A stretch of DNA of 64,000 nucleotides from an uncultured bacterium (GCA_963720265.1 CAVRET010000002.1:663601-727600), one strand, 5' to 3'. Positions 4,190 to 26,275 are shown, counted from the first letter of the stretch. The notes: generated by a model from the letters alone, not told the origin. Numbers and translations are program-made.

Positions 4190-7100
4190 ATGAAGCAGTA
4201 CGATCCCAAAACCATTGAGCCCAAATGGCAGCAAATCTGGGCCGACACCAATCTGTATGCCGCCATCGACGGTGATTCCAGGCCAAAATATTACATGCTC
4301 ACTGAGTTCCCGTATCCGTCAGCCGCCGGTCTCCACGCCGGCCACGTACGCGAGTACACCATCGGCGACGTCATGGCCCGCCATAAACGTATGCTCGGCC
4401 ACAACGTGCTCTACCCCATGGGCTGGGACGCCTTTGGCCTGCCTACCGAAAATTACGCTATTAAGACCGGCCAGAAGCCAAAGGATGTCACTGCCACCAA
4501 CACGGCCATCTTTCGCCGCCAGATGCAATTGCTTGGCCTCGGTTTCGATTGGTCGCGCGAGGTCAATACCTCGGACCCGGCCTACTACAAATGGACCCAG
4601 TGGCTGTTTTTGCAATTCTTCAAGCACGGCCTCGCCTATCAGGCCGAGATTCCCATTAATTGGTGCCCATTTGAAAAAACCGGCCTGGCCAACGAAGAGG
4701 TGATAAATGGCGTCCACGAGCGCTGCGGCACCCCGGTTGAGAAAAAACTGCTTAAGCAATGGATGCTTAAAATCACCGCCTACGCCGACCGGCTGGTGGA
4801 TGGCTTAAAAACCGTCGACTACCCTCCCCGTATCGCCGACCAGCAAATCAACTGGATCGGCCGCTCTGAGGGTGCCAACATCGACTTCTCCGTTGCCGGC
4901 GAGAAAATTACTGTCTACACTACCCGCCCCGACACGCTCGCCGGCGCTACCTTCCTCGTGCTCGCGCCCGAGCATCCAGCCGTGGCCAAAATTACAAGAC
5001 CGCAGCAGAAAGACCGGGTTGAGCAATACGTTAAGAAAACCCAGTCCGAGACCGATCTAAACCGCCAGGAAGAAAACCGGCCCAAAACCGGTGTCTTTAC
5101 CGGCGTCCATACCATAAATCCCATCACCAAAGCCAGCATGCCGGTCTGGATTGCCGACTATGTGCTGGCCGGCTACGGTACCGGCGCCATTATGGCCGTT
5201 CCTGCCCATGATGAGCGAGATTTTGCCTTTGCCAAGGCCATGAATAAGCAGCTGGGCTACGACGTAGAGCCCACCTATGTTGACATTGAATCAACGCCTC
5301 GGCCGGACCAGCCATTCGAAAACCGCGAAGTTGCCCAGGCTATAGTCAAGCATCCGACCGAGCAAAAGTACCTATTGTTGGAGCTTAAAGCCTGGGACGA
5401 CAAATCTTACAGCTACCCCATGGGAGGAATCCACGACGGCGAAACCCCGACCGAAACGGCAGTGCGCGAGCTGACTGAGGAAACCGGCTACGACCATATC
5501 AGACACACCAGGCCGATCAGTGCGCCTTACTTTGCGGAATTTTATCACCAGCACAAACACGTCAATCGGCGCGCTCACGTCCACAGTGTATTCATTGAAC
5601 TTGCCGATCTTCACCAATCTGGCATTGCACAACACGAACGCGACCTGCACGGGCTTCATTGGCTTACCGGTGACGAGGTGGCCAGCAAGGTACTTGGTAC
5701 CGGCACAAAGAAATTAATGCTCGACTTCCTTGCCGGCCGCGCCACTCCGGCTATCGACATCATACCGGTGATCGACCCTGTCCTCATTCGCGACGATGCG
5801 AGGGATTTGAAGGAATTCAAGCGCCATCGCAAAATCGTCGCCGTCGTCGAAAATGCCGCAGGCGAAATCCTCACTATCAACTGGGGTCCAAAGTATGGCG
5901 GCCGCCTCACCATTGGCGGCACCATCGAAGGCGACGAGGCACCCGAAATTACAGCTATGCGCGAAGTCGCCGAAGAAACCGGTTACCACGACCTCGAAGT
6001 GCTCGAAACCGGCGCCGAAACCATGCATTACAAGTATTATGCCTTCTCTAAAAGGGAAGGGCACGATGTCACCGTCCGGTTCATTCATACGCGCCTTAAA
6101 AGCGACAAACGCAAAGCCCAAGATCTCAACGAATCCGAGAAAAACAAATTCACAGTCGAATGGGCAACACGCAACCAAGCCGAGCGCGAGATCGTTGAGC
6201 CGCTTCACCGCTACGCCATAAACAAATTCATCTTTGGTCATGTCCATGCCGGCGACGGTGTGCTCGTGAACTCCGGCCAATTTGACGGCCTGCAAAACGA
6301 CGAAGCCAGGCGTGCTATTGTCCAGTGGCTGTTTGATCAGGGCCTGGGCCGCCACGCCACCACCTACCGCTTGCGCGACTGGATTTTCTCACGCCAGCAC
6401 TACTGGGGCGAGCCTATCCCCATTATTCACTGCCCCAAAGACGGCGCCGTGCCCGTGCCCGACGACCAGCTGCCCGTAAAGCTGCCCGAGGTTGAGCATT
6501 ATGAACCCACCGATACCGGCGAATCGCCGCTCGCCGCCATTTCCGAATTCGTAAACACTACTTGCCCCAAGTGCGGCGGCCCGGCCAAACGCGAAACCGA
6601 CACCATGCCCAACTGGGCCGGCTCAAGCTGGTACTACCTACGCTACATGGACCCGCACAACGACCACGAATTCGCCGGCCGCGCCAACATGGATTATTGG
6701 GGCATGGTCGATATCTACCTCGGCGGAATGGAGCACACCACGCTCCACTTGCTCTATTCACGTTTTTGGCACCAGTTCTTTTACGATCAGGGCCTCGTGC
6801 CCACGCCGGAACCCTATGCCGCCCGCCGCGGTCAAGGCATAGTTTTGGCTTCGGACGGCCGTAAAATGAGTAAATCACTCGGCAACGTCGTCAACCCCAC
6901 TGACATCGTCGAACGCTACGGCGCCGATACCTTCCGTCTATACATCATGTTCATGGCGCCGTACGACGAAACCACACCCTGGAGTGACGAGCGTTTAAAC
7001 GGTGTCTCGCGCTTCCTCTACCGCGTCTGGGCGCTCGTTCAACAGTTACGTGAACCACAAGCCGAAATCGCGCCGAATGGCATTATCGAGACCGAAGTCG

Positions 7101-7588
7101 ATCGCACTACCCACAAAACCCTCAAAAAGGTCCACGACGACCTCGAAGGGATGCGCTTTAACACTTACGTCAGTGCACTTATGGAATGCGTCAATTACCT
7201 GAACTCGCCGGCGAACCTGACTGCGATTCGCAACCACCCGGCTCTCTCCGAGCGCACCATCCGGACGCTCATTCTCATGCTCGCCCCGGCCGCACCGCAC
7301 CTGGCCGAAGAGCTTTGGCACGAGCTGGGCGAGCAGGGGAGCGTGCATACTGCACCATGGCCCAAATACGACCCCGAGCTCATCAAGGACGACCTCATCA
7401 CCATAGTGGTACAGATAAACGGAAAGGTTCGTGGCCAAACCACGGCCCCGGCCGACGTCACCGAGGCCGACCTCATCAATTTAGCCTCAATCGAGCCCAA
7501 GGTGGCCGCTCTGCTTGATGGCAAAAAGGTTGCAAATACTATTGTCGTGCCCCGCCGCCTCGTCAATTTCGTCGTTAAGGAGAGCTAG
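4190..7588 (+). CDS. leuS: leucyl-tRNA synthetase with an insertion of about 335 aa containing two Nudix domains
   Basis: HAGH (HIGH variant), the editing-domain blocks TTRPDTLAGATFLVLAPEHP and GTGAIMAVPAHDERDF, YRLRDWIFSRQHYWGEPIP, KMSKSLGN, and the anticodon-binding region are all present. Two perfect Nudix boxes, GGIHDGETPTETAVRELTEETGY and [24 protein letters not shown], lie between the editing domain and SGQFDGL. Confidence 0.9.
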   Translation: MKQYDPKTIEPKWQQIWADTNLYAAIDGDSRPKYYMLTEFPYPSAAGLHAGHVREYTIGDVMARHKRMLGHNVLYPMGWDAFGLPTENYAIKTGQKPKDVTATNTAIFRRQMQLLGLGFDWSREVNTSDPAYYKWTQWLFLQFFKHGLAYQAEIPINWCPFEKTGLANEEVINGVHERCGTPVEKKLLKQWMLKITAYADRLVDGLKTVDYPPRIADQQINWIGRSEGANIDFSVAGEKITVYTTRPDTLAGATFLVLAPEHPAVAKITRPQQKDRVEQYVKKTQSETDLNRQEENRPKTGVFTGVHTINPITKASMPVWIADYVLAGYGTGAIMAVPAHDERDFAFAKAMNKQLGYDVEPTYVDIESTPRPDQPFENREVAQAIVKHPTEQKYLLLELKAWDDKSYSYPMGGIHDGETPTETAVRELTEETGYDHIRHTRPISAPYFAEFYHQHKHVNRRAHVHSVFIELADLHQSGIAQHERDLHGLHWLTGDEVASKVLGTGTKKLMLDFLAGRATPAIDIIPVIDPVLIRDDARDLKEFKRHRKIVAVVENAAGEILTINWGPKYGGRLTIGGTIEGDEAPEITAMREVAEETGYHDLEVLETGAETMHYKYYAFSKREGHDVTVRFIHTRLKSDKRKAQDLNESEKNKFTVEWATRNQAEREIVEPLHRYAINKFIFGHVHAGDGVLVNSGQFDGLQNDEARRAIVQWLFDQGLGRHATTYRLRDWIFSRQHYWGEPIPIIHCPKDGAVPVPDDQLPVKLPEVEHYEPTDTGESPLAAISEFVNTTCPKCGGPAKRETDTMPNWAGSSWYYLRYMDPHNDHEFAGRANMDYWGMVDIYLGGMEHTTLHLLYSRFWHQFFYDQGLVPTPEPYAARRGQGIVLASDGRKMSKSLGNVVNPTDIVERYGADTFRLYIMFMAPYDETTPWSDERLNGVSRFLYRVWALVQQLREPQAEIAPNGIIETEVDRTTHKTLKKVHDDLEGMRFNTYVSALMECVNYLNSPANLTAIRNHPALSERTIRTLILMLAPAAPHLAEELWHELGEQGSVHTAPWPKYDPELIKDDLITIVVQINGKVRGQTTAPADVTEADLINLASIEPKVAALLDGKKVANTIVVPRRLVNFVVKES

Positions 7589-8115
7589 TGGGCCTCAAAA
7601 TCGACTACAAATTTTGCCCGCAATGTCGACGGCCGATGACTCGTACCGCCGAGGGTGACCCGCATTGCGGGCATTGTGACATTACCGTTTATGACGATGT
7701 TGCCGCCGGTGCCTCAGCGCTGATTATCCGTGACGATCATGTTTTGCTCAGCCGGCGCGCCCGCGAGCCATATGAGGGTGACTATGACCTGGTTGGTGGA
7801 TTCATGAAGGCCGGCGAGTCACCTGAGCAAACGGCGGCCCGTGAGGCCATGGAAGAGACAGGACTAACCATAAAAATCAGTAAACTGCTTGGCATCTATC
7901 CCGATCAATACGGTGAAAACGGAAGCCCCGTCATTAGCATCGTCTATATCGGAGAGCACGTCGCCGGTTCAGAACAGGCAGGCGACGACGCTGCTGCTCT
8001 TGAATGGGTCGAAATTGAGCGGATCCCACCAGTCGCTTTTCAAAGCCGCTTCCAAAGCGTCCGCCAACCCTTGCACGATCTGCAGACCTGGTACCGCAGG
8101 CGAAAGGCGAGCTAG
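7588..8115 (+). CDS. NUDIX hydrolase with an N-terminal C4 zinc ribbon (NudC-like architecture)
   Basis: CPQC...CGHC zinc ribbon followed by the Nudix box GGFMKAGESPEQTAAREAMEETGL. The GTG start overlaps the leuS stop (TAGTG). Confidence 0.6.
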   Translation: MGLKIDYKFCPQCRRPMTRTAEGDPHCGHCDITVYDDVAAGASALIIRDDHVLLSRRAREPYEGDYDLVGGFMKAGESPEQTAAREAMEETGLTIKISKLLGIYPDQYGENGSPVISIVYIGEHVAGSEQAGDDAAALEWVEIERIPPVAFQSRFQSVRQPLHDLQTWYRRRKAS

Positions 8116-9473: not shown

Positions 9474-9947
9474 ATGGCTTCCAATCGTCATCTCGGCCGC
9501 ATCGTTGCCATGCAAACGCTCTACGAGCATGATTTTCGTGGTGGCGACGGTACCGAGCTCGCTCTTGACCCCATTCTCCAGCGCAATCTCGATGAATTCC
9601 GCAGCTCCATCGACGACATCAACTTCGTTGAAGACCTAGTTTCCGGCGTGCACGAGCACCAGGCCGAAATCGACGGCATTATCGGTCCAGCCGCGCCCGA
9701 ATGGCCGGTTGAGCAGATTGCTAAGATCGACAAAATTATCCTGCGCATCGGTGTATACGAGCTCATGATCAAGCGGGATGTTCCACCGAAGGTTGCCATC
9801 AACGAGGCCGTTGAGCTGGCCAAAACCTTCGGCGGCGAAAACTCGAGTAAATTTATTAACGGTGTCCTCGGCACCATCTATCGGAACAGTGATTTTTATG
9901 AACCAGAAAGCGAAAAACCGGCCGTACCGACCGACCAAAACGAGTAA
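9474..9947 (+). CDS. nusB: transcription antitermination factor NusB
   Basis: AREIAMQ-like N-terminus ([11 protein letters not shown]), FVEDLVSGV, and [25 protein letters not shown]. Confidence 0.85.
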
Positions 9948-10461
9948 AACCCCGCCTCGCATTAAGGCCACCCGCGAATACACCGCCGGCGGCGTGGTGT
10001 TTCGGCGCATCGATGACCGCATCGACATCCTCATGATCCAAGACCGCCTCGGCCGTTGGACCATTCCCAAGGGCCACGTTGAACCCGGCGAAAGCTTGGA
10101 GCAAACAGCGCTGCGTGAAGTGGCTGAGGAAACCGGTCTGCAGCGCTTTCGCATCGGCGAAAAGCTCGACACATTGCGCTTTTTTTATCGCAAAGATGGC
10201 AAGCTCATCTTCATGACCACCGACGTGTTTGTCATGGAGGCGCTTGGTGATACCGAAAGCTTAAGCCACGGTGACTCAGCAGGCATCGTTGATGTGAAGT
10301 GGTTTGCAGCCGACCGCGCCCTCAAACTAGTGGAATACCGCGATACCGAGCGGCTGTTCCGCATGTGCCTGGCCAAACTCGATGCGCCGGGGTCAAAACA
10401 TCAGCACCGTCGTCCTCGCCGCCGCCTCGCCACTGCGACCGGAGGCCGCACTAGTGAATAA
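9898..10461 (+). CDS. NUDIX hydrolase
   Basis: Nudix box [23 protein letters not shown]. The start was moved to ATG 9898 (MNQKAK...), which is in frame with the track ORF 9778. Confidence 0.6.
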
Positions 10462-16487: not shown

Positions 16488-16883
16488 ATGAAACTTACCA
16501 GACTACTCCCAGCCACCACGGTCTATGCGCACTGTGATCTGCCGTGCGGCGTTTACGATCCCGCCCAGGCCCGTATTGAAGCCGAATCCGTACTCAAAAT
16601 TATGCAAAAATATGGGGATTCAGACGATCAGGTCTTCCGCACCCGTTGCCTTATCCTCAAAGAGGAACGCGCGGAGCTGGCCAAACGACACCTCTGGGTG
16701 CTCTGGACCGATTATTTCAAGCCCGAGCACTTGGAGAAGCACCAAAACCTGCACGATCTATTTTGGCGTGCCACCAAAGCCGCCGGCCAGGCCAAGCATT
16801 CGGTCGATCCGGCCGACGGCCAAAAGCTCCTCGACCTGATCGCGGAGATAACCGATGTCTTTAACGCTACCAAAAAAGCTTAA
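16488..16883 (+). CDS. sodN: nickel superoxide dismutase precursor
   Basis: The Ni-hook HCDLPCGVYDP sits directly after a 14-aa leader (MKLTRLLPATTVYA). Confidence 0.85.
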   Translation: MKLTRLLPATTVYAHCDLPCGVYDPAQARIEAESVLKIMQKYGDSDDQVFRTRCLILKEERAELAKRHLWVLWTDYFKPEHLEKHQNLHDLFWRATKAAGQAKHSVDPADGQKLLDLIAEITDVFNATKKA

Positions 16884-17181
16884 CCTGAGGCGCCTGCGCC
16901 CGCTTGGCCTGTACCGTGTTTCAGGACACAGCATGGAGCCCACGTATGAGCCCGGGGACACATTGCTCGGCCTGCACTGGTTTGCGCCGCGCCGGGGTCG
17001 GGTAGTAGTAGCGCGTACCGCGGGCGGGCGGCCGCTCATCAAGCGCCTCGCGGCTGTCGACCGGGTAAAAGGCACTGTCATACTTCTCGGCGACAATCCG
17101 GCCGCCTCTACTGACTCACGCCATTTTGGGCCGCTCCCGGACAGTGCGCTTGAAGCCGTGATCATTGCGAGACTGCCATGA
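16855..17181 (+). CDS. sodX: NiSOD maturation peptidase (S26 signal-peptidase family)
   Basis: S26 catalytic Ser motif SGHSMEPTY. It lies immediately downstream of sodN, and the two overlap. Confidence 0.75.
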   Translation: MSLTLPKKLNLRRLRPLGLYRVSGHSMEPTYEPGDTLLGLHWFAPRRGRVVVARTAGGRPLIKRLAAVDRVKGTVILLGDNPAASTDSRHFGPLPDSALEAVIIARLP

Positions 17182-17624: not shown

Positions 17625-18198
17625 CCAAATGGAAACCTCCGGTGGCCAAGCTGGAGGGCCGGGCCACCGGAAGCTCTAATCTGACTGGCGCCACCTGGTC
17701 CCTCGCCATGAGCGTAGCCATTGCGTCACTTGCGCCGATCACCCGCAAGCCTTGCTCGAGGCAACCGAGCGCTCGCTCAATTGCCACCTCAACGCGTTCA
17801 TTCGACGCGGTCGGCGAAAAAGCATATGGGCAATGCGCGAACACTGCGAGCCATTGGGCTGCCCATATGAACTCCAAATCGAGCCCCTCGATACCTCTGA
17901 ACATCGAACCGTGAAGCTCGAGCAGCCTATCCTCGGAGTGCCCATCAAAGCGCAGGTCGCGCAGACCAAGCACATTGGTGAATCCACTGTAAGCCGGCTC
18001 GATACCAACGCGCACCAGCCGCTGAATCCGACTGCGATCTCCGAGCCCCCTCAAGCACTCGGGGAGGTTGGCCATAATGCGCTTCAGTTGCCGAGCCGCA
18101 TCCGGATCGGCCTTCGTACTAGTTGCATCAGCAATTGTCATACAATGTCCCTCGCGAGAGTCGATCGTGGATTCGGTCGTGCAGACACTTGTGCCCAC
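17590..18198 (-). CDS. hypothetical protein
   Basis: A 202-aa ORF. A competing + ORF runs 17752..18231. No motif. The strand choice is tentative. Confidence 0.3.
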   Translation of the reverse strand: MGTSVCTTESTIDSREGHCMTIADATSTKADPDAARQLKRIMANLPECLRGLGDRSRIQRLVRVGIEPAYSGFTNVLGLRDLRFDGHSEDRLLELHGSMFRGIEGLDLEFIWAAQWLAVFAHCPYAFSPTASNERVEVAIERALGCLEQGLRVIGASDAMATLMARDQVAPVRLELPVARPSSLATGGFHLARGGERSAGCA

Positions 18199-18314
18199 AA
18201 ACCGGCACTCTACACGGTCCGAACTAGATAGTCCTCAGGGCATTGTCCAAATTCCAATTGCGCGCCGCCCGCGGGTCTTTGGCGATACAACAAACAGCAT
18301 AACCGGCGCCGCTC

Positions 18315-18343
18315 TTGAGCCATCGCGCATTTATCTCTATAAT
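18315..18343 (+). promoter_or_regulatory. sigma70-like promoter for tRNA-Gln (TTGAGC-17-TATAAT)
   Basis: The -35 TTGAGC is at 18315-18320. A 17-nt spacer follows, and the -10 TATAAT is at 18338-18343, about 20 nt upstream of the tRNA. Confidence 0.5.
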
Positions 18344-18364
18344 TGCCCCTTGAACCAACCGTAA

Positions 18365-18439
18365 TGGGGCGTGGCCAAGTGGTAAGGCGCTTGATTCTGG
18401 CTCAAGAGATCGTAGGTTCGAATCCTACCGCCCCAGCCA
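18365..18439 (+). tRNA. tRNA-Gln (anticodon CTG), CCA encoded
   Basis: Manual cloverleaf. Acceptor TGGGGCG/CGCCCCA, D-arm GCCAAGTGGTAAGGC, anticodon stem CTTGA/TCAAG with loop TTCTGGC, and T-arm GTAGG-TTCGAAT-CCTAC. It closely resembles E. coli tRNA-Gln. Confidence 0.85.
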
Positions 18440-18456
18440 GGAATTATTTGGCTTTG
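18429..18456 (+). repeat. 28-nt direct repeat, copy 1 (tRNA 3' end CGCCCCAGCCA plus 17 nt of flank)
   Basis: CGCCCCAGCCAGGAATTATTTGGCTTTG is identical to 19524-19551. Homology of about 75% continues for roughly 80 nt downstream. Confidence 0.8.
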
Positions 18457-18654
18457 CAAAGCCACTATTCATAACCGCAGTTTCGTCTGTTTTAATTTAT
18501 CCCTCCGTTAAGCCATTATTTGGTTCGAATCCTATTGCTCCATCTGGACAGCATTGCAGTTTTATGGTAGAATATAGTAATCCTACTCTGGGTTTTCTCT
18601 CTACCCGGCGCCAAGGAGCTTTGTTCACACGTCAAAGAGAGATTTTGGAGACTG

Positions 18655-19317
18655 GTGATGACTCAGACCGACGGTACCGGCCCAATCGCCGTACTGGAGC
18701 CCCGACTCGGCTTCCCCGGCAGCCGCGACACGCGACCACTGTCGGGAAACGTGCCTAGCCTGGACATCCCCGCCCTGCTGGACCTCGGCTATGGCCCACG
18801 CATCGTCCCATTGCGCCGGGCCAGTACACCCATGCCAGACGGCGCGTTCAACGTCGTCCAGGTCCGCAGCGGCCGCATCGACTACTGCTGGAACCCGACC
18901 GTAATGCCTGGTTCCGACCGTCACTGGATCGAACAGGTGGCCGGGCTCGAGCTGACCGCCTTCGTGGCCATCGGCGTTATCGGCGCAGATGGTTTCCGGA
19001 TCCTGCCCAGCAACGTCCGCACCAACAACGGCTACCTGGTGTTCTACACCCGCTGGCCGGTGTTCAAGTCGCCTGGGTCCGACGAGGTCATAAACACCGG
19101 GTTCTACTACCGGCTGATCCGCTTCGATACCTTCGACAACGACCCCGCCAAGGGCGATGTCCTGCGTGTCAGGATTGCTCGGCCGGGTGGTCGCGGCTAC
19201 CTCTTCGGCGAGGACCCTGATACCCATCTGGTGTTCATCAACGACCCCGACCCCTGGATGGGCCTGATCTGGGCGGCCCGAGACGGGTACAGAAGGGAGT
19301 GCCAGGTCAGTCCGTAA
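18655..19317 (+). CDS. hypothetical protein (cassette 1 cargo, high GC)
   Basis: A 220-aa ORF with no recognisable motif. Confidence 0.45.
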   Translation: MMTQTDGTGPIAVLEPRLGFPGSRDTRPLSGNVPSLDIPALLDLGYGPRIVPLRRASTPMPDGAFNVVQVRSGRIDYCWNPTVMPGSDRHWIEQVAGLELTAFVAIGVIGADGFRILPSNVRTNNGYLVFYTRWPVFKSPGSDEVINTGFYYRLIRFDTFDNDPAKGDVLRVRIARPGGRGYLFGEDPDTHLVFINDPDPWMGLIWAARDGYRRECQVSP

Positions 19318-19392
19318 ATCACTACCTCCGCCCGGGAAAGCGACCCCCATCGCTTTCCCGGACTGAGCCAAGTTCTTAACTAGATTAAGCAT

Positions 19393-19590
19393 TTAGTTCA
19401 GTCTCCCACATTTACCGGCTTCGTCTCCATCATCCAGCAATCTGTGGATCTCATTGGTCTCGTGATCAAGCTTTTTTAGCTCATCCCAGGTCAAAGGCTC
19501 CCCAGTTTGGAACAAGACCTCTCGCCCCAGCCAGGAATTATTTGGCTTTGTTAAGCCACCGTTCAACGTCCCAATTTCACTAGTTTTCAT
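19393..19590 (-). CDS. small conserved-family protein A (65 aa, W-L-G...FQT...EI..LL motif)
   Basis: GGAGG RBS 5 nt upstream. It shares KPNNSWLGREVLFQTGE...EIHRLL with three paralogs in the array. Its 5' coding region contains the tRNA-derived repeat. Confidence 0.55.
   Translation of the reverse strand: MKTSEIGTLNGGLTKPNNSWLGREVLFQTGEPLTWDELKKLDHETNEIHRLLDDGDEAGKCGRLN
19524..19551 (+). repeat. 28-nt direct repeat, copy 2 (an att-like copy of the tRNA 3' end inside small gene A)
   Basis: Exact match to 18429-18456. Confidence 0.8.
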
Positions 19591-19673
19591 TTATGCCTCC
19601 GTTAAGACATTATTTAGTTCGAACCCTGCCACTCCCATAGAATCTTGATGTTATTGCCATGTAAGATGAACAC

Positions 19674-20600
19674 ATGAAGGTTCCATACATTGGCAAAGCC
19701 GAATACTGTTACTCGAATTCGACTGCGATGATGCTCGCTTCAATCGGCGAGGATGTGCCGCCCTCAAGGATCGAGGTACTCACCGGTATGGGAGTCGGTG
19801 CATTCAAGGAAAGAAATTCAAACGTTATTTTCTTTGATTGTTGGCATACCGACAAAGGCATAAGTGAAGCCCTGACTTCCCTAGGATTTTCCTTTGATGA
19901 ATCTGCCAACGAGAAACCAGACGACCCACCTTTCGAAGAGTTAAGGAGCGCACTTTCAAATGGACCAGTCGTTCTTGGACCGTTGGACATTGGCCTTCTA
20001 AGTTATCGCCCAAGGAACAGAGGCGCTAATGGCTCGGTGCATTACATCCTGGCTCACGGAATGGACGACCAAAGAGTCTATGTGCACGATCCATGGGGTT
20101 ACCCGTTCGTAAGCATCACGCTTGAGGACTTAAGGGAAGCGTGGGAAGCGCGCCTGATAGAGCAAAAGCATGGCTATTACCGCCATTGGAGCAATCCAGT
20201 CCGCATTGAATCTCCCGCAAACGATGACCTGTTCAGCCGGGCTCTTGCCACTTTCAAGAAAGTCTATGCTGATGGTCAAACCGAGCTGAAGCGCAAAGGC
20301 CATCAAACAGGACCGGAGGCTATCAGCGCGGTTGCGTCAGCGGCCCGGAATAATGGCCTTTCCGATGACGAGGTTTACAATTTAGCTGGTTTCTCACTTC
20401 CATTAGCAGCGAAGCGGGCTTTAGATTATTCATCCTATTTTCAAGAAAGGAACAAAGTAGTTTCAGACGCCAAGTACGAGATGGCCCAACTATTTGGGTC
20501 TGCCCAGACAAAATTGATGGCGAAGGACCTCAACAGCTTCTCGGCCGACCTGGAGAAGTTAGCTGATTTCGAGAACCGGATTGAAGGGATTCTCGGATAA
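19674..20600 (+). CDS. hypothetical protein with a possible papain-like/BtrH-N-like cysteine peptidase fold (cassette 2 cargo, low GC)
   Basis: A 308-aa ORF with a candidate Cys-His-Asp triad: YCYSNSTAMML ... HYILAHGMDDQRVYVHDPW. The length is typical of the BtrH_N plus C-terminal domain architecture. GC is low. Confidence 0.4.
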   Translation: MKVPYIGKAEYCYSNSTAMMLASIGEDVPPSRIEVLTGMGVGAFKERNSNVIFFDCWHTDKGISEALTSLGFSFDESANEKPDDPPFEELRSALSNGPVVLGPLDIGLLSYRPRNRGANGSVHYILAHGMDDQRVYVHDPWGYPFVSITLEDLREAWEARLIEQKHGYYRHWSNPVRIESPANDDLFSRALATFKKVYADGQTELKRKGHQTGPEAISAVASAARNNGLSDDEVYNLAGFSLPLAAKRALDYSSYFQERNKVVSDAKYEMAQLFGSAQTKLMAKDLNSFSADLEKLADFENRIEGILG

Positions 20601-20785
20601 CGCTCGCCTTTGCTCGAAAGGTAATCACTGACTTCGTCCTCCTCTAGCAATTTCCTGATCTCGGCCACATCACAATCTACATCGTCCTCAAAAGTCTGGA
20701 ACACGTAACAGAGCTCCAGCCAAGGACTTATTTTTACGAAGCCATCAAATTGACCCGTTTTAGGGTCGTTTTTTTTGCCGTCCAT
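20441..20785 (-). CDS. small conserved-family protein B. The ORF runs 114 aa as drawn, but its 3' part is antisense to the cassette 2 gene, so the real product may be shorter.
   Basis: N-terminal region KISPWLELCYVFQTFEDDVDCDVAEIRKLLEEDE. An RBS GGAGG sits 5 nt upstream of the ATG at 20785. Confidence 0.5.
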   Translation of the reverse strand: MDGKKNDPKTGQFDGFVKISPWLELCYVFQTFEDDVDCDVAEIRKLLEEDEVSDYLSSKGERYPRIPSIRFSKSANFSRSAEKLLRSFAINFVWADPNSWAISYLASETTLFLS

Positions 20786-20845
20786 GTTATACCTCCATTA
20801 AGCCATTAGTTCGTTCGAATCCGTCCTAAACTCAATAAAAATGGT

Positions 20846-20874
20846 TGACAAATGCAACCAAACATGTTAGATTT
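20846..20874 (+). promoter_or_regulatory. strong sigma70-like promoter TTGACA-17-TAGATT, followed by a 7-bp inverted repeat GTAACAG..CTGTTAC and an SD
   Basis: The hexamers and 17-nt spacing were read directly. The IR GTAACAGGGCTCCTGTTAC lies at about 20888-20906, just before the ATG at 20928. Confidence 0.45.
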
Positions 20875-20927
20875 TCTACAAGGTAACAGGGCTCCTGTTA
20901 CATAGTTCCTACAGGAGAGGAAGCCAC

Positions 20928-21221
20928 ATGGAACCTCTAGTGTTCCTCGAAGTGCTTCTCAAGCAGTTCAAGCGCGTTAGTGATCTGTACGTCCGTGATG
21001 GCTATCGCCTTCGGACCATTCCGGTCCAAGATGACAGCTTTACGAGCTCTGGTCGCACATATCGACTTGAGTTCGAAAAGGAGCGAAGCTCAGCCGGCGA
21101 CGGCAGCGTTACTCTCGATGTCATCGACGCTAAGCTAGTGGTCGATGATCAGGCTCAAGTATTGAGCCTCACTCAACGGAGTTCAGAAGAGTGCTACCCA
21201 TTGGGTAGGCCGGTGAACTAA
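20928..21221 (+). CDS. hypothetical protein (97 aa)
   Basis: An ORF downstream of a good promoter and the GGAGAGGAAG SD. No motif. Confidence 0.45.
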   Translation: MEPLVFLEVLLKQFKRVSDLYVRDGYRLRTIPVQDDSFTSSGRTYRLEFEKERSSAGDGSVTLDVIDAKLVVDDQAQVLSLTQRSSEECYPLGRPVN

Positions 21222-21596
21222 CCAGTAAAATCTGGAAATAGGTTCTCTAATTGTGAATATGCTTGCTTGATAACCGTACGCGTTATCCTCTGTCATACTC
21301 TGTAAAAGTCCCAACCTCTCCAGTGTGAGTCTAAACACTGGCGGCGCCGCATTACCGGGGCCGTTCTTTATTTTTGGCCATCAGGGGTTCGACCGAGCGT
21401 GGCGCAGCTTACTCGCCTGCGGTTGTTCGATAAGTTTGCATATTGCTCTGATATCTTGTGCGGCATCCTTCTCTGTTTGAACTTTCTCCTCAGAAGTTTG
21501 GACTAGGAACCATATCCCCAGCCATATGTCAAGCATAAGCATTAAGTCCTTCCGTGTTATTCATTTTTTTAGTCAATGATTTGTTATTATTAAGCG

Positions 21597-22253
21597 GTGA
21601 TTGACGACCAAGCACAGCTAATCTGGGAATACATGAAGCTAAACCAAGAGCTTAAACCTTGTGACGCCATCTTTGTGCTTGGAAGCATCGATGACAGAAT
21701 TGCAGAATATGGCGCCAAATTATTTTTGGAGGGATATGGCGACTGGTTGATTCTGTCCGGTGGTGAAGCGCACGCCAACGACATGCTCGCCACAAAATGG
21801 GCAGAAAAAACAGAGGCTGAGCACTTTGCTGCCATCGCCAAAAAACTTGGCGTACCAACCGACAAGATTATCACCGAAAACAGAGCAACAAATACGGGCG
21901 AAAACATTACGTTTACCTACGAATTAGTAAGGAGCAGAGGGCTAACACTTCACTCACTGTTGCTGGTTCAAAAGCCCTATATGGAGAGGCGAACGTACGC
22001 GACTTTTCAGAAGCAGTGGCCGGATGAAACCACACGCTTCATTGTTTCGTCTCCTCCAATACCCTACGCAGAATATTTCAATGACTCGCAGCCAAAAGAC
22101 AAGGTCATCAATATTATGGTTGGAGATCTGCAAAGAATCGCGGAGTACCCAAAGCTTGGTTTTCAAACTGCACAGGAAATCCCCGCAAAAGTCTGGACCG
22201 CGTACGAAACACTTGTGGCCAAGGGTTATGATAAACACCTCATGAAGCCCTAA
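21597..22253 (+). CDS. DUF218/YdcF(SanA/ElyC)-like protein (low GC)
   Basis: CDAIFVLGS ... RATNTGENI ... LLVQKPYMERR matches the DUF218 pattern. Confidence 0.6.
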   Translation: MIDDQAQLIWEYMKLNQELKPCDAIFVLGSIDDRIAEYGAKLFLEGYGDWLILSGGEAHANDMLATKWAEKTEAEHFAAIAKKLGVPTDKIITENRATNTGENITFTYELVRSRGLTLHSLLLVQKPYMERRTYATFQKQWPDETTRFIVSSPPIPYAEYFNDSQPKDKVINIMVGDLQRIAEYPKLGFQTAQEIPAKVWTAYETLVAKGYDKHLMKP

Positions 22254-22468
22254 AGCTGCGTTTTACCGCCGTCATTGTCAAGAATCCGTAGTATTTCATC
22301 CACATCACATTCGTCCATTTTGTCAAAAGTTTTAATTATATACCATCTCCCCAGCCATAAAATGTGAACGCCAAATAGTCCCGTAAAATGGTCTATTTTT
22401 GGTTTGGAATGTCGGTAGGGGCGATAGGACGTCCAAACTTCTTGATTTCCATCAGCAGTCATACTCAT
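22250..22468 (-). CDS. small conserved-family protein C (72 aa)
   Basis: HILWLGRWYIIKTFDKMDECDVDEILRILDND aligns with the core of paralogs A, B and D. Confidence 0.5.
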   Translation of the reverse strand: MSMTADGNQEVWTSYRPYRHSKPKIDHFTGLFGVHILWLGRWYIIKTFDKMDECDVDEILRILDNDGGKTQL

Positions 22469-22576
22469 AGACTTGCTTTTTTCTCCAATTTGTGCTAATA
22501 TATGTTCAAGTACTGCCCAGATGGCAGTCTCCTAGTAACGCACTAGGGCCTCTCCTCGGATGGAAGGATACAAGCC

Positions 22577-22924
22577 ATGCGTATTCGCATCACCGAAGGG
22601 CCTTGCGCCGCCGACACCATGTTCCGAGCATGTCTCGCGGCCACCGAGTTCGCCGGTCGCATCGTCGACATAGACATGACCGATACCAGCCCGCCCAGCC
22701 CAGGTCCGCGCTCAATCGAAATCACCGCACTGGTCGCGCTCCAGGGCGGACGCATGGTTGGGATCATGGCTAACTGCCACATAGTTCGCACGGAAGCCGG
22801 TTGGACTGACGGGCTCTGCGACTTCTACGGCCAACCCGCCAACCCAATGCTGGTTCGGTTCCTCTACGACATGGCCCAGCCCAACCCGGAGCCCGTCGTT
22901 TACAAGGCAACCTCCTCTCGGTGA
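22577..22924 (+). CDS. hypothetical protein (115 aa, high GC)
   Basis: An ORF with no recognisable motif. Confidence 0.4.
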   Translation: MRIRITEGPCAADTMFRACLAATEFAGRIVDIDMTDTSPPSPGPRSIEITALVALQGGRMVGIMANCHIVRTEAGWTDGLCDFYGQPANPMLVRFLYDMAQPNPEPVVYKATSSR

Positions 22925-23007
22925 TCAACCTCCCCGCTCTGCGGGGAGGCCCACCCCAAGATTTCAAGAATTTGAAGTTTTAGGATGGGTCAACTAGCGT
23001 CGACTTC

Positions 23008-23109
23008 CTAGAGCAACTCACGAATCATCTCGATCTCGCTCTGAATCACTTTGGGCTGAGAGGAATCATATTCATAAGTTTGGAACACGTAACAGAGCTC
23101 CAGCCATGT
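23008..23109 (-). pseudogene. remnant of a small conserved-family protein D (33 codons, no in-frame ATG)
   Basis: It translates to TWLELCYVFQTYEYDSSQPKVIQSEIEMIRELL. A 26-nt stretch (23081-23106) is identical to 20697-20722 inside paralog B. There is a stop upstream and no start codon. Confidence 0.5.
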
Positions 23110-23457
23110 AGAGCGAATTTCATTTTACAGCTCTTCGGAACTGTTTTTGTCTTTGTTCGCTTAGTCACTGTTAAGGGCTTGGAAGGTCATTCTTGGGCCT
23201 CCATTAAATCATGCTTTTCTGGACATTCGCAGCGATCACATGAGCGAATATCGAGTTTTCTACTGATATTGCACCGTCTTTTATCGAGTACAAACTTGAG
23301 CATCCTCCTCACCGGCTGCTACTGATCATTGACCGCAAGCACTTTCAAGCCTTGCTGCGAGAGCAACAGCGCAGGAATTTTTTGTACCTGCGCATGCCAA
23401 CCGTATGTTACTGCCTCACAGGCATTGCAATCGGACAACGGGTCAAAGCCGTATCGG

Positions 23458-24120
23458 CTATTCCTGCTGCCACTGACACTTTCCGCTACCGTAGTTAATG
23501 GCGCTCAACGCGAGATTAGTGCCGCCAAAGTCACACAGCCATGTCGGCTCGTCGTATTGGCCGTTATCCGAGGCTAGGACGTTCTCAACGTACCAACTCG
23601 TACCATCGCCGCCGGGAACGTTTTGGACGAAGATCGTTGAAGCTGATCCGCACGGCTCCAAGGCCGCTTGACCGTTACCGTGAGCAACCCAGCCCACACA
23701 GTCACTGGTATCAGGAGCGTAGACGAACTCGTCTATATCATCGTTGTAGTAGCGATTGTTCAACCCGTCGCCGACAGTAAACGGACAAGTGTGCGTTACG
23801 CGTCCGTCATTACACAAGCTGGTGCCGCGCGTATAAAAGTCTTCGTGATTATCGCCGCTCTCATACCCGTATGCGGCAACCCTGTTGCCGTAACTTTTGC
23901 CGCCGTTCCAGTCATTAAAGCACTGCTCGCTATACTCGAAGCTGCATATCGATTGCCCGGCTGCGCGAGACTGCGTACGGTAAATTGCCACCCCACTAAC
24001 CACAATTGCGGCCACAAAAATCGCCCCTAAAACCACTTGCGTAGATCGCAACGATAGTCTCTGTGATATTGTTTTTACTTGCGATTTTTGTTTTTTTCGC
24101 AACCCGGTTTTAGTTGGCAT
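23458..24120 (-). CDS. Cys-rich secreted/membrane-anchored hypothetical protein
   Basis: A basic N-terminus plus a TM helix (VVLGAIFVAAIVVSGVAIY), then a domain with ten Cys and many Gly/Asn/Asp/Tyr. Confidence 0.5.
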   Translation of the reverse strand: MPTKTGLRKKQKSQVKTISQRLSLRSTQVVLGAIFVAAIVVSGVAIYRTQSRAAGQSICSFEYSEQCFNDWNGGKSYGNRVAAYGYESGDNHEDFYTRGTSLCNDGRVTHTCPFTVGDGLNNRYYNDDIDEFVYAPDTSDCVGWVAHGNGQAALEPCGSASTIFVQNVPGGDGTSWYVENVLASDNGQYDEPTWLCDFGGTNLALSAINYGSGKCQWQQE

Positions 24121-24254
24121 TACGCATACCCATTATGTTTATTTTAGGAAACTATCAATCACACACCATTATAACGCTTACGCTTAGGGAATCAATGGGA
24201 TTAACCAGGTTACACCTTTAGGTAGTAAGCAAAAAATGATGCATGTATTGGAAG

Positions 24255-24270
24255 ATCCAGCAAATAACGA
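24255..24270. promoter_or_regulatory. 16-bp perfect palindrome TAACGATATATCGTTA (candidate operator) next to a TATAAT box (24281-24286), in the AT-rich leader of the ABC exporter
   Basis: The palindrome was read directly. The surrounding 210 bp are AT-rich, unlike the flanks. Confidence 0.45.
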
Positions 24271-24331
24271 TATATCGTTACTAATTGTACTATAATAAGT
24301 ATAGTTATGATTATTTATTCTTTGGCTATAG

Positions 24332-26275
24332 ATGCCTCCAGGTAGCGGTGGGCGTGGCATGCGCGGTCCGCTGCGGTCGTTTTCGCGAGACTCGACGGTA
24401 ACAAAACACAAGCTGGCGCCACACATACGCCGGCGTGTTATTCAGTTTGCCGCGCCCTATAAGATGCTACTGCTCGTATTCCTTGTCGTCGTCGTGGTGG
24501 ACGCGGCAATTGGAGTGGTCAATCCACTCATACTGAGAGACATCATAAACAAGGGCATCATCGGTCAGAACCCCAGTCTTATCATTGATCTGGCCTTCCT
24601 TGTGGCTGGCCTGGCCATCTTCGACGCTGGGCTGACATTCGTCAGCCGCCTCATCTCCGCCAAGATTGGCGAAGGGCTCATATTCGACATGCGCACACGC
24701 ATATTTACCCATATCCAAAGCATGCCGCTAGCCTTTTTTACACGGACACAGACGGGGGCGCTTGTCAGCCGTCTCAACAACGATGTTCTAGGAGCACAAG
24801 AAGCGTTTACGGATGTGCTGTCCAACGTCGTCGGAAATATCATCAGCGTTGGGCTCGTGCTCATCGCGATGTTCATACTATCATGGCAGCTCACCCTAGT
24901 CGCAATCGTTATTTTGCCCGTTTTTTTGCTGCCAGCTCGGTGGCTCGGACGTCGACTTCACGCAATTACACTTGAGAGCTATAACCTCAATTCGGTTATG
25001 AATAACACCATGATCGAGCGCTTCAATGTCGCCGGTGCCTTATTATCCAAAGTCTTTGGTAACCCGCAACAAGAAAACGAGCTCTTTCGCTCTCGGGCCG
25101 CCCGAGTACGGGATATCGGCGTGACCCAAGCCATGTACGCACGATTCCTTTTCATCGCCCTGATGCTCACCGCATCGCTCGCTACCGCCATCATATATGG
25201 GTGGGGCGGCGTGCAGGCAGCCGAGCGAGTCCTAAACGTCGGGACCGTCGTGGCCCTCACCGCCTATCTTACGCGACTATATGGACCGCTTACGCAACTA
25301 TCTAATATGAACGTTGATATTATGACCGCCCTAGTATCGTTTGAACGCGTGTTCGAGATCCTCGACCTACCGCCACTCATCAGGGAATCGTCGCATCCCA
25401 AGATAATTCCAGCCGGTCCGGCATCCGCATCCATCGCCTTTGAACACGTCGACTTTACATATCCAGCGCCCAAAGACGTGTCGCTGGCGTCGCTAGAATC
25501 CGTGGCGGTACTGGCCAAAAGTGACGCCAAACAGGTCTTGTTTGATGTTAGCTTTACGGTCCAACCGGGACAAATGGTAGCGCTTGTCGGGCCGTCCGGG
25601 GCCGGCAAAACGACCATCTCCCAACTTGTAGCCAGATTGTACGATGTGAGCTCAGGCAGCGTCCGCATTAGTGGTGTCGACGTCAGGGACGCATCATTTC
25701 GTACGCTCCGCGAACGGATTGGCCTGGTCACACAGGACGCCCACCTCTTTCACGAAACCATTCGTGACAATTTGCTTTTTGCTAAGCCGGACGCTACCGA
25801 TGAAGAGGTCTTAAAAGCTCTCGACGACGCCCAGCTGAGCAGCCTCGTTCAAAGTCTGCCGACAGGGCTAGGCACAATGGTTGGCGACCGCGGCTATCGG
25901 CTGTCGGGAGGAGAAAAGCAGCGGCTGGCTATCGCCCGCGTCCTACTCAAAGATCCAGATATCGTGATTCTTGATGAAGCCACTGCCCACCTGGATTCGG
26001 AATCGGAGCGAGCCATCCAGGACGCGCTTGGTCATACACTACATAATCGAACCTCGCTGGTCATTGCCCACCGGCTCTCCACTATTCGGATGGCCGATGA
26101 AATACTGGTTGTAGACCATGGCCGCATTCGTGAACGAGGCACGCACGACGAACTGCTCAGACAAAATGGCCAGTATGCTAAACTCTACGAACTGCAGTTT
26201 CGCGCAAGTGCTGCCGCGGTGAGCAATCAGGGGGAGTCAAATGAGAATTCAACATTGGCTACCTCAAGTCATTAG
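24332..26275 (+). CDS. ABC transporter, fused permease/ATPase exporter type (MsbA/type I exporter-like)
   Basis: Six TM helices, then Walker A GPSGAGKTT, signature LSGGEKQRLAIARV, and Walker B ILDEATAHLD. The real start may be an internal Met. Confidence 0.85.
   Translation: MPPGSGGRGMRGPLRSFSRDSTVTKHKLAPHIRRRVIQFAAPYKMLLLVFLVVVVVDAAIGVVNPLILRDIINKGIIGQNPSLIIDLAFLVAGLAIFDAGLTFVSRLISAKIGEGLIFDMRTRIFTHIQSMPLAFFTRTQTGALVSRLNNDVLGAQEAFTDVLSNVVGNIISVGLVLIAMFILSWQLTLVAIVILPVFLLPARWLGRRLHAITLESYNLNSVMNNTMIERFNVAGALLSKVFGNPQQENELFRSRAARVRDIGVTQAMYARFLFIALMLTASLATAIIYGWGGVQAAERVLNVGTVVALTAYLTRLYGPLTQLSNMNVDIMTALVSFERVFEILDLPPLIRESSHPKIIPAGPASASIAFEHVDFTYPAPKDVSLASLESVAVLAKSDAKQVLFDVSFTVQPGQMVALVGPSGAGKTTISQLVARLYDVSSGSVRISGVDVRDASFRTLRERIGLVTQDAHLFHETIRDNLLFAKPDATDEEVLKALDDAQLSSLVQSLPTGLGTMVGDRGYRLSGGEKQRLAIARVLLKDPDIVILDEATAHLDSESERAIQDALGHTLHNRTSLVIAHRLSTIRMADEILVVDHGRIRERGTHDELLRQNGQYAKLYELQFRASAAAVSNQGESNENSTLATSSH

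Follow-up and report, generated by a model that had tools for sequence, protein, structure and literature searches.

What are the small minus-strand open reading frames (ORFs) that follow a glutamine tRNA gene in the genome of an uncultured bacterium, and why do they contain short copies of the end of that tRNA? The ORFs are situated in a stretch of 64,000 nucleotides (nt) of this genome (GCA_963720265.1, CAVRET010000002.1:663601-727600), which we call the window; the source organism is a member of Saccharimonadales (TM7/Patescibacteria). The original prediction, made from the sequence of the window, described a family of four such ORFs, each intact one tail-to-tail with a different cargo gene. 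We propose, with a probability of about 0.55, that the locus is a one-directional, integron-like array of five small mobile cassettes, inserted successively at the 3' end of tRNA-Gln, and that the recombination site lies inside a micro-gene that is split between cassettes.

The anchor of the array is tRNA-Gln(CTG), the sole tRNA found by ARAGORN in the window, with a promoter-like site in its region at 18315-18343. The final 9-11 nt of this gene (CGCCCCAGCCA, encoded CCA included) make the primary copy of a repeat core, CYCCAGCCA, that we found six times in the window, always on the plus strand and between positions 18431 and 23106. About 1.7 occurrences per 64 kb would be expected, and a count of six was reached in 0 of 100 shuffles. 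The six same-strand cores delimit five units of 749-1189 bp each, and all but one of the cores are located inside the minus-strand small ORFs A, B, C, D and E. Every joint carries 9-11 nt identical to the tRNA-Gln end, that is, a direct repeat at the element boundary. An Rfam scan of positions 18000-24500 returned nothing besides tRNA-Gln. The anchor and the small ORFs (lengths in amino acids, aa) are these:

18365-18439, plus strand: tRNA-Gln(CTG), found by ARAGORN and matched by the Rfam tRNA model with 70 bits
19393-19590, minus strand: small ORF A, 65 aa
20441-20785, minus strand: small ORF B, 114 aa, with the conserved part at about 20639-20785 (49 aa)
21381-21542, minus strand: small ORF C, 53 aa, homologue P0005
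22250-22468, minus strand: small ORF D, 72 aa
23008-23109, minus strand: small ORF E, at the last array junction, with an intact C-terminal half (WLELCYVFQTYEYD..SEIEMIRELL*) and no in-frame start

The ORFs, the remnant and the motifs reported earlier were found at their places. The earlier roster holds for the copies that it listed, and it had omitted the intact copy C. The 26-nt identity between copies B and E (20697-20722 and 23081-23106) is real, and the WLG(R) codons do correspond, in reverse complement, to the 3' end of tRNA-Gln. The copy joined to the tRNA (18440-18500, minus strand) is a truncated remnant, as had been said; it reads ...IKTDETAVMNSGFAKPNNSWLGR*, with the stop two codons into the tRNA, and it has ATT at the position of the ATG of copy A. 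A GGAGG ribosome-binding site (RBS) had been placed 5 nt upstream of each intact copy. This is correct for A and B, where the motif stands 5-6 nt before the ATG, and loosely so for C (GGAAGGA); it is wrong for D, which has GGAG 14 nt upstream.

Each cassette carries at its tRNA-distal end a site of about 34 bp, and exchange occurs exactly at the 9-11 bp that are identical to the tRNA. The small ORF runs antisense across the joint, with the C-terminal 30-45 codons and the site coming from one cassette and the start codon, the RBS and the 5' codons coming from the sequence that follows. Since the ORF spans the joint, it is chimeric at every joint and reduced to a stump at the joint with the tRNA. 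For example, the part of ORF A from the WLG codon onward (19393-19533) belongs to cassette 1, while its 5' half, with the RBS and the ATG (19534-19600), belongs to cassette 2. The N-terminal halves come from the terminator module of the neighbouring cassette and are not conserved protein. In ORF D, the C-terminal half is 68% identical to P0008, and the 5' half is a type I element (described below) read antisense; the likeness of its N-terminus to homologues (KVWTSY..SKPK..ILWLG) is conservation of DNA, not of protein. The site of ORF C, GTTTGGACTAGGAACCATATCCCCAGCCA, has the form that is commonest in other genomes. The length of ORF B results from the loss of an ancestral stop, since its homologue P0006, from locus L002 of another genome, has TAG after ..KLLEED where the window has GAA. 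The 3' extension of ORF B (20441-20638, minus strand) overlaps the 3' end of the convergent C39-like gene by 160 nt.

L002 allows a direct comparison of such units. It is syntenic with the window: the tRNA, a membrane protein, an S24-like peptidase and a Ni-superoxide dismutase (Ni-SOD) gene occur in both. Identity between the two reaches 83.5% over the C39-like cassette (19504-20733), compared to 67-73% for the flanking core genes. The first cassette differs, with a 220-aa gene in the window and a CN_hydrolase gene in L002. The 5' half of ORF A (GLTKPNNS) is present in L002 as well, but attached there to a different C-terminal half.

In alignments around the core, sequence similarity stops exactly after CCAGCCA. 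Cassettes with PLDc_2 (L011, L022, L027, L018), DUF2000 (L014, L028) and C39 cargo meet different right neighbours, and identical right-hand modules are found behind different cassettes and behind the true tRNA. Small ORFs antisense to, and downstream of, tRNA-Gln(CTG/TTG) were observed in L002, L005-L007, L009, L010, L020, L021, L025, L031 and L032. Arrays with this site occur beside tRNA-Gln in L008 too, other loci show the one-directional arrangement as well, and in total the layout was met next to tRNA-Gln in more than 20 further contigs. The loci retrieved by protein pattern come from Patescibacteria, Candidatus Saccharibacteria or Saccharimonadales.

The site has the layout AAAGTTTGGAM-N13-CCCCAGCCA and, on the tRNA strand, the consensus CAAAAGTTTGGACTAGGAACCATCTCCCCAGCCA; its last 9-11 bp are the tRNA 3' end. 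Read antisense, the ~34-nt site is translated as the first ~11 codons of the conserved peptide (WLGRWFLVQTF). In 16 copies (the window and L001-L014), identities at codon positions 1, 2 and 3 were 0.77, 0.86 and 0.82 for site codons 1-10, third positions being as conserved as the others, compared to 0.50, 0.60 and 0.30 for the rest of the ORF. In 27 copies chosen by protein motif, a helix block of 15 ungapped codons gave 0.57, 0.70 and 0.30, with Arg and Leu spelled by many different codons. Because of these differences in codon-position identity and the varied Arg and Leu codons, WLGRWFLVQTF is seen to be kept as DNA, and the acidic stretch with the amphipathic helix (D-I-x-E-I-R-x-L-L-D-E) that makes up the C-terminal part is clearly under selection at the protein level.

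Loci retrieved by degenerate protein patterns or by protein identity, a selection that leaves synonymous positions unconstrained, had a near-invariant site; L015-L030 cannot serve as an argument for invariance, having been obtained through an exact site match. Among 44 sites, 28 keep an open frame that ends in the helix motif and 16 keep the DNA site with the helix ORF lost (site without ORF in L007, L011, L012, L014, L023 and L026, for example). The original prediction had named an att-like DNA site as its own alternative, to be recognised by internal stops in the ORFs of related strains while the repeat is kept. Copies that have lost the ORF and kept the site do exist, and the repeat is att-like. 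The prediction of a genuine, unrecognised family of small proteins, encoded in part by the tRNA-derived repeat, is borne out along with it.

An exhaustive profile HMM search of 1.84 billion cluster representatives produced 313 homologous representatives at E <= 1e-3, almost all of 38-100 aa and with the profile match at the C-terminus. Searches of Pfam (five window copies and 95 family members), PADLOC and PDB sequences gave no match for the small proteins or the family, the best PDB-sequence E-value being 0.06, and the family has remained without a recognised identity, as had been noted. Three homologues, P0011, P0041 and P0082, were considered as domain fusions; they look like over-extended ORF calls instead.

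The opposite, left ends of the cassettes are short modules (45-110 nt) that carry a plus-strand terminator. The commonest module at the right-hand side of a joint is the type I element, for which 15 copies, L005-L032 among the sources, could be aligned without gaps. It shows no codon periodicity (0.71/0.72/0.76 at the three positions) and has in-frame stops in two copies. Its hairpin and T-run show compensatory changes in the stem, and we therefore consider it a terminator. It further contains the motif GTTTGGAC-N21-GTCCAAAC, with an 8-mer that is also present in the cassette site. At most one type I element was found per array, with cassettes on both sides, and in six genomes it directly abuts the tRNA; it may be an accessory site of the platform itself. 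The right-hand modules fall into discrete types, and a second one is located at the joints U0, A and B; its minus strand has GGAGG and an ATG, and a degenerate tRNA 3'-end copy closes it. The cassettes of the window and the sequence beyond them are composed as follows:

18440-19533, plus strand: cassette 1, with a GC-rich cargo gene of 220 aa (18655-19317, plus); type II left module 18440-18545, in which the 5' half of a small ORF (18440-18500, minus) and a copy of the tRNA 3' end (18518-18545) have both decayed; promoter-like site 18545-18573; inverted repeat 19326-19367; at the right end, the C-terminal half of ORF A and the 34-nt site 19500-19533
19534-20722, plus strand: cassette 2, with a C39-like peptidase gene of 308 aa (19674-20600, plus; Pfam Peptidase_C39_2); type II left module 19534-19640; at the right end, the C-terminal half of ORF B and the site 20689-20722
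20723-21524, plus strand: cassette 3, with a cargo gene of 97 aa (20928-21221, plus); left module with a plus-strand terminator (20751-20776), the antisense RBS and ATG of ORF B and a T-loop-like remnant (20806-20830); promoter-like site 20845-20873; at the right end, the C-terminal half of ORF C and the site 21491-21524
21525-22357, plus strand: cassette 4, with a DUF218 gene (21597-22253, plus; Pfam DUF218, E = 2e-20); at the right end, the C-terminal half of ORF D and the site 22324-22357
22358-23106, plus strand: cassette 5, with a GC-rich cargo gene of 115 aa (22577-22924, plus); type I-like left module; at the right end, the C-terminal half of ORF E and the site 23073-23106
22358-22441, plus strand: the type I-like element of cassette 5, a diverged copy of the 84-86-nt module, with terminator hairpin, T-run and GTTTGGAA-N21-GTCCAAAC
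23107-23149, plus strand: distal flank, with a hairpin at 23127-23144 followed by a T-run, as read from the sequence

By analogy with the flanks found beside the tRNA at other loci, the hairpin of the distal flank probably terminated the tRNA originally and was moved away from it by the insertions. The plus-strand terminator of cassette 3 sits just past the core of ORF B. A 255-aa ORF at 18625-19392 (minus strand) is the antisense shadow of the GC-rich cargo gene of cassette 1 and is probably not a gene.

All cargo genes of the window are on the plus strand, and cassettes 1 and 3 have sigma-70-like promoters. The GC content of the cassettes is 0.44-0.575, compared to 0.557 for the window. The cargo genes here and elsewhere are unrelated ordinary enzymes (C39-like, DUF218, CN_hydrolase, PLDc_2, DUF2000, HAD, S51, methyltransferases), and they had no PADLOC match. 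At other loci, about one third of the intact small ORFs are coupled to cargo, in that a cargo gene on the same strand starts at, or overlaps, the stop of the small ORF; CN_hydrolase, PLDc_2, DUF2000, Mrr_cat and a 189-aa gene are examples. Such coupled genes are read from the neighbouring module, across the joint. In L068 (10001-14480), the small ORF overlaps the start of the Mrr_cat nuclease gene by 4 nt, and HTH_3 and type IV secretion-like genes (TrbL_3, PrgI) follow.

How might such an array work? The cassettes would move as units by site-specific recombination between their own site and the tRNA end or another site, and the recombinase would be encoded elsewhere and act in trans. Through contact with the recombinase the micro-protein might act as an accessory or directionality factor, or it might be a switch with joint-dependent expression; in about one third of the cassettes it would also serve as an upstream ORF translationally coupled to promoterless cargo. 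Because it is the sole gene common to all cassettes and is intact in many diverged copies per genome, the micro-protein probably serves the element itself. A role as recombination directionality factor (RDF) is possible, with an RDF of the serine-integrase type, one that binds the recombinase, as the model.

Several observations weigh against such an array of mobile cassettes. Among the Pfam matches of the window ORFs at 0-57 kb (all but the last five ORFs, at 56.9-63.8 kb) there was no integrase, resolvase or transposase. No recombinase was found within 10 kb on either side of the arrays in eight loci (L001, L002, L005, L031, L032, L034, L068 and L069), and no conserved gene upstream of the tRNA presented itself as a candidate. 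Regular expressions for recombinase motifs gave no match, although they are insensitive and returned next to nothing in phage loci too. No circular contig was found, and the 34-nt site was absent from the viral contigs scanned; in these, matches to the tRNA-Gln 3' end occurred at 33 loci, with no family members, and were tRNA-Gln ends of other organisms. The 48 distinct right flanks have at most 0.37 bit per position. Without positional conservation on the right the site is therefore one-sided, unlike the usual two-armed core site of a recombinase.

The peptide raises objections as well. In their present joint, about one third of the intact C-terminal ORFs lack a start codon (ATG, GTG or TTG) in frame before a stop is met upstream. 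With a median pI of 4.2 the peptide is acidic, unlike DNA-binding excisionases, and when it was considered as an excisionase or RDF, this value, the missing Pfam match and the missing integrase nearby all spoke against it. The AF2 model, built from a 36-sequence alignment, is poor (pLDDT 62). The fact that the ORF strand is complementary to the tRNA end suggested the primer-binding site of a retroelement as another candidate; it was rejected, there being no reverse transcriptase.

The main rival, which we consider unlikely, dispenses with a dedicated recombinase. Cassettes would be swapped by homologous recombination after natural DNA uptake, with the tRNA, the 34-bp site and the small gene as anchors, and the small gene would persist for a reason unrelated to mobility. 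Saccharibacteria are said to be naturally competent, and no recombinase was seen near any array examined. One-sided conservation is what a shared block of homology would be expected to produce, and the apparent breakpoints, which fall where homology ends, do not discriminate between the two models. However, an anchor of 34 bp is about the shortest that RecA-dependent exchange can use. Homologous exchange also leaves unexplained why the joints end precisely at the terminal 9-11 nt of the tRNA, CCA included, and why all sites have the same orientation. Moreover, synonymous positions of the site are fixed although the tRNA-Gln genes are only 72-80% identical between genomes.

Could the peptide itself hold the cassettes in place? 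A membrane-active or toxic micro-protein, in the style of type I toxins, would stabilise the cassettes through its joint-dependent expression. The peptide has a hydrophobic stretch (..ILWLGRWFLVQTF) with a charged tail behind it, the AF2 model runs a single long helix through this stretch, and expression does depend on the neighbouring module. We regard this as improbable, given that the conserved part has a hydrophobic stretch of only about 11 residues, that no antisense RNA partner is evident, and that there is no database match and the model is of low confidence. Quite improbable, too, is a purely non-coding att site with incidental reading frames. The DNA-level conservation of the site, the copies with a site and no ORF, and the type I 'N-terminus', conserved as DNA only, would agree with it, but it is contradicted by the strong three-base periodicity and the extensive synonymous change beyond the site, by the 28 sites that keep the helix-ending frame and by the 313 diverged cluster representatives.

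The suggestion of the original prediction that each small protein acts with the cargo beside it, as its cognate immunity protein, antitoxin or regulator, is very improbable and already largely refuted: the C-terminal half does travel with the cargo on one cassette (window versus L002) and some neighbouring cassettes elsewhere are toxin-antitoxin pairs (Fic/VbhA, PIN), but the cargo genes are unrelated enzymes with no toxin signature, near-identical peptide cores stand beside different cargo genes, the ORF is chimeric and often has no start, and its most conserved stretch is a DNA site.

Is the proposed cassette array then a case of a known system? It resembles an integron in several ways: the cassettes, most of them with a single gene, all point in one direction and close with a conserved site, the primary insertion site is fixed, the same cassettes recur in different orders and genomes, and some promoterless cargo is read from outside. 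In integrons, a short ORF across attI1 couples the translation of cassettes. Unlike integrons, the locus has no integrase gene (intI) beside the primary site, which here is the tRNA 3' end, and no GTTRRRY core; most cassettes of the window bring their own promoter and terminator, and the site lies within a protein-coding micro-gene under selection. Folding of the attC kind was not detected in five right-end modules on both strands (z-scores from -0.37 to +1.57 against shuffles), and no inverted repeat was found across the sites.

Integration of SSV1 places attP inside a gene that is split upon integration, and the split gene is the integrase. The array is similar in having the recombination site within an ORF, the halves of which become separated, and in the partial or hybrid ORFs at the joints. 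The gene split here, however, encodes an acidic peptide of 40-80 aa, which cannot be a recombinase.

The tycheposons of Prochlorococcus are 10-20 kb long, have their own tyrosine or serine integrase and often carry replication genes (bioRxiv 10.1101/2020.12.28.424599). Tycheposon islands share with our locus the tRNA-adjacent growth by repeated insertion, the partial tRNA copies between elements, the mixed adaptive cargo and the streamlined genome. Here, in contrast, the units are 0.7-4.5 kb long, no cassette has an integrase, only 9-11 nt of the tRNA are repeated, and a 34-bp non-tRNA site with a micro-gene is present at every joint.

The Xer-dependent dif modules of Acinetobacter plasmids and IMEX comprise accessory modules, including toxin-antitoxin modules, with sites of about 28 bp and a recombinase encoded elsewhere (PMC6449649). 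Common features are the small accessory-gene modules bounded by sites and a recombinase in trans, as we infer for the array. On the other hand, inspection of the consensus revealed no inverted XerC/XerD arms around a 6-bp spacer, the arms matching at 4 of 11 positions; all sites of the array are in direct orientation rather than alternating, and their association is with a tRNA gene, not with dif. GC skew gave no terminus at the position of the array. The array could be regarded as a form of site-specific cassette array, and as a separate class once its enzyme is known.

Other elements appear to use the same tRNA. Partial fragments of the tRNA-Gln 3' end of about 25 nt (T-loop to CCA), with no full tRNA, were found in L001 (flipped 6547, 11594), L012 (flipped 2213), L034 (flipped 4617) and L016 (flipped 1309). 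They are a second class of joint, of the classic displaced-att type, which suggests that ordinary integrative elements use the same tRNA-Gln.

The surroundings of the array contain several further genes. Just upstream of tRNA-Gln, a Ni-SOD gene and an S24-like maturation peptidase are present in the window (16488-17181), L002 and L009. Between the last joint and an ABC transporter gene, 23458-24120 (minus strand) encodes a 220-aa protein with an N-terminal hydrophobic segment in low-GC DNA (0.47); it had no match in Pfam or PADLOC. This region may be older island material that has no recognisable site. Further away, 4190-7588 (plus strand) encodes a leucyl-tRNA synthetase of 1132 aa with a NUDIX domain inserted at about residues 544-676, and two more NUDIX genes follow it (7588-8115 and 9778-10461).

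The genomes of Saccharibacteria measure about 1 Mb, and the cells live attached to host bacteria; little is understood of how these organisms gain and trade accessory genes. A description of the system was not found in the full-text literature on Saccharibacteria or the Candidate Phyla Radiation (CPR). It is possible, if doubtful, that Saccharibacteria, and perhaps other Patescibacteria, have a gene-capture system of their own, analogous to integrons and unrelated to them. Such a system would have the 3' end of tRNA-Gln as its landing site, cassettes of less than one to a few kilobases that end in a one-sided 34-bp site, and a recombinase in trans, possibly of a new type; with the recombination site inside the split micro-gene, insertion or excision would rewire the expression of the peptide and of the coupled cargo. 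That the site is one-sided and that no recombinase was found in cis points to an enzyme or a mechanism not previously linked to cassette capture.

The micro-protein family, with its 313 clusters, is unannotated and usually missed or miscalled by gene finders, and it is a case in which DNA rearrangement decides whether a gene is intact. A compact array at a fixed tRNA in many lineages would be a main route of gene flux in the group, and it would offer genetic tools a natural place to dock.

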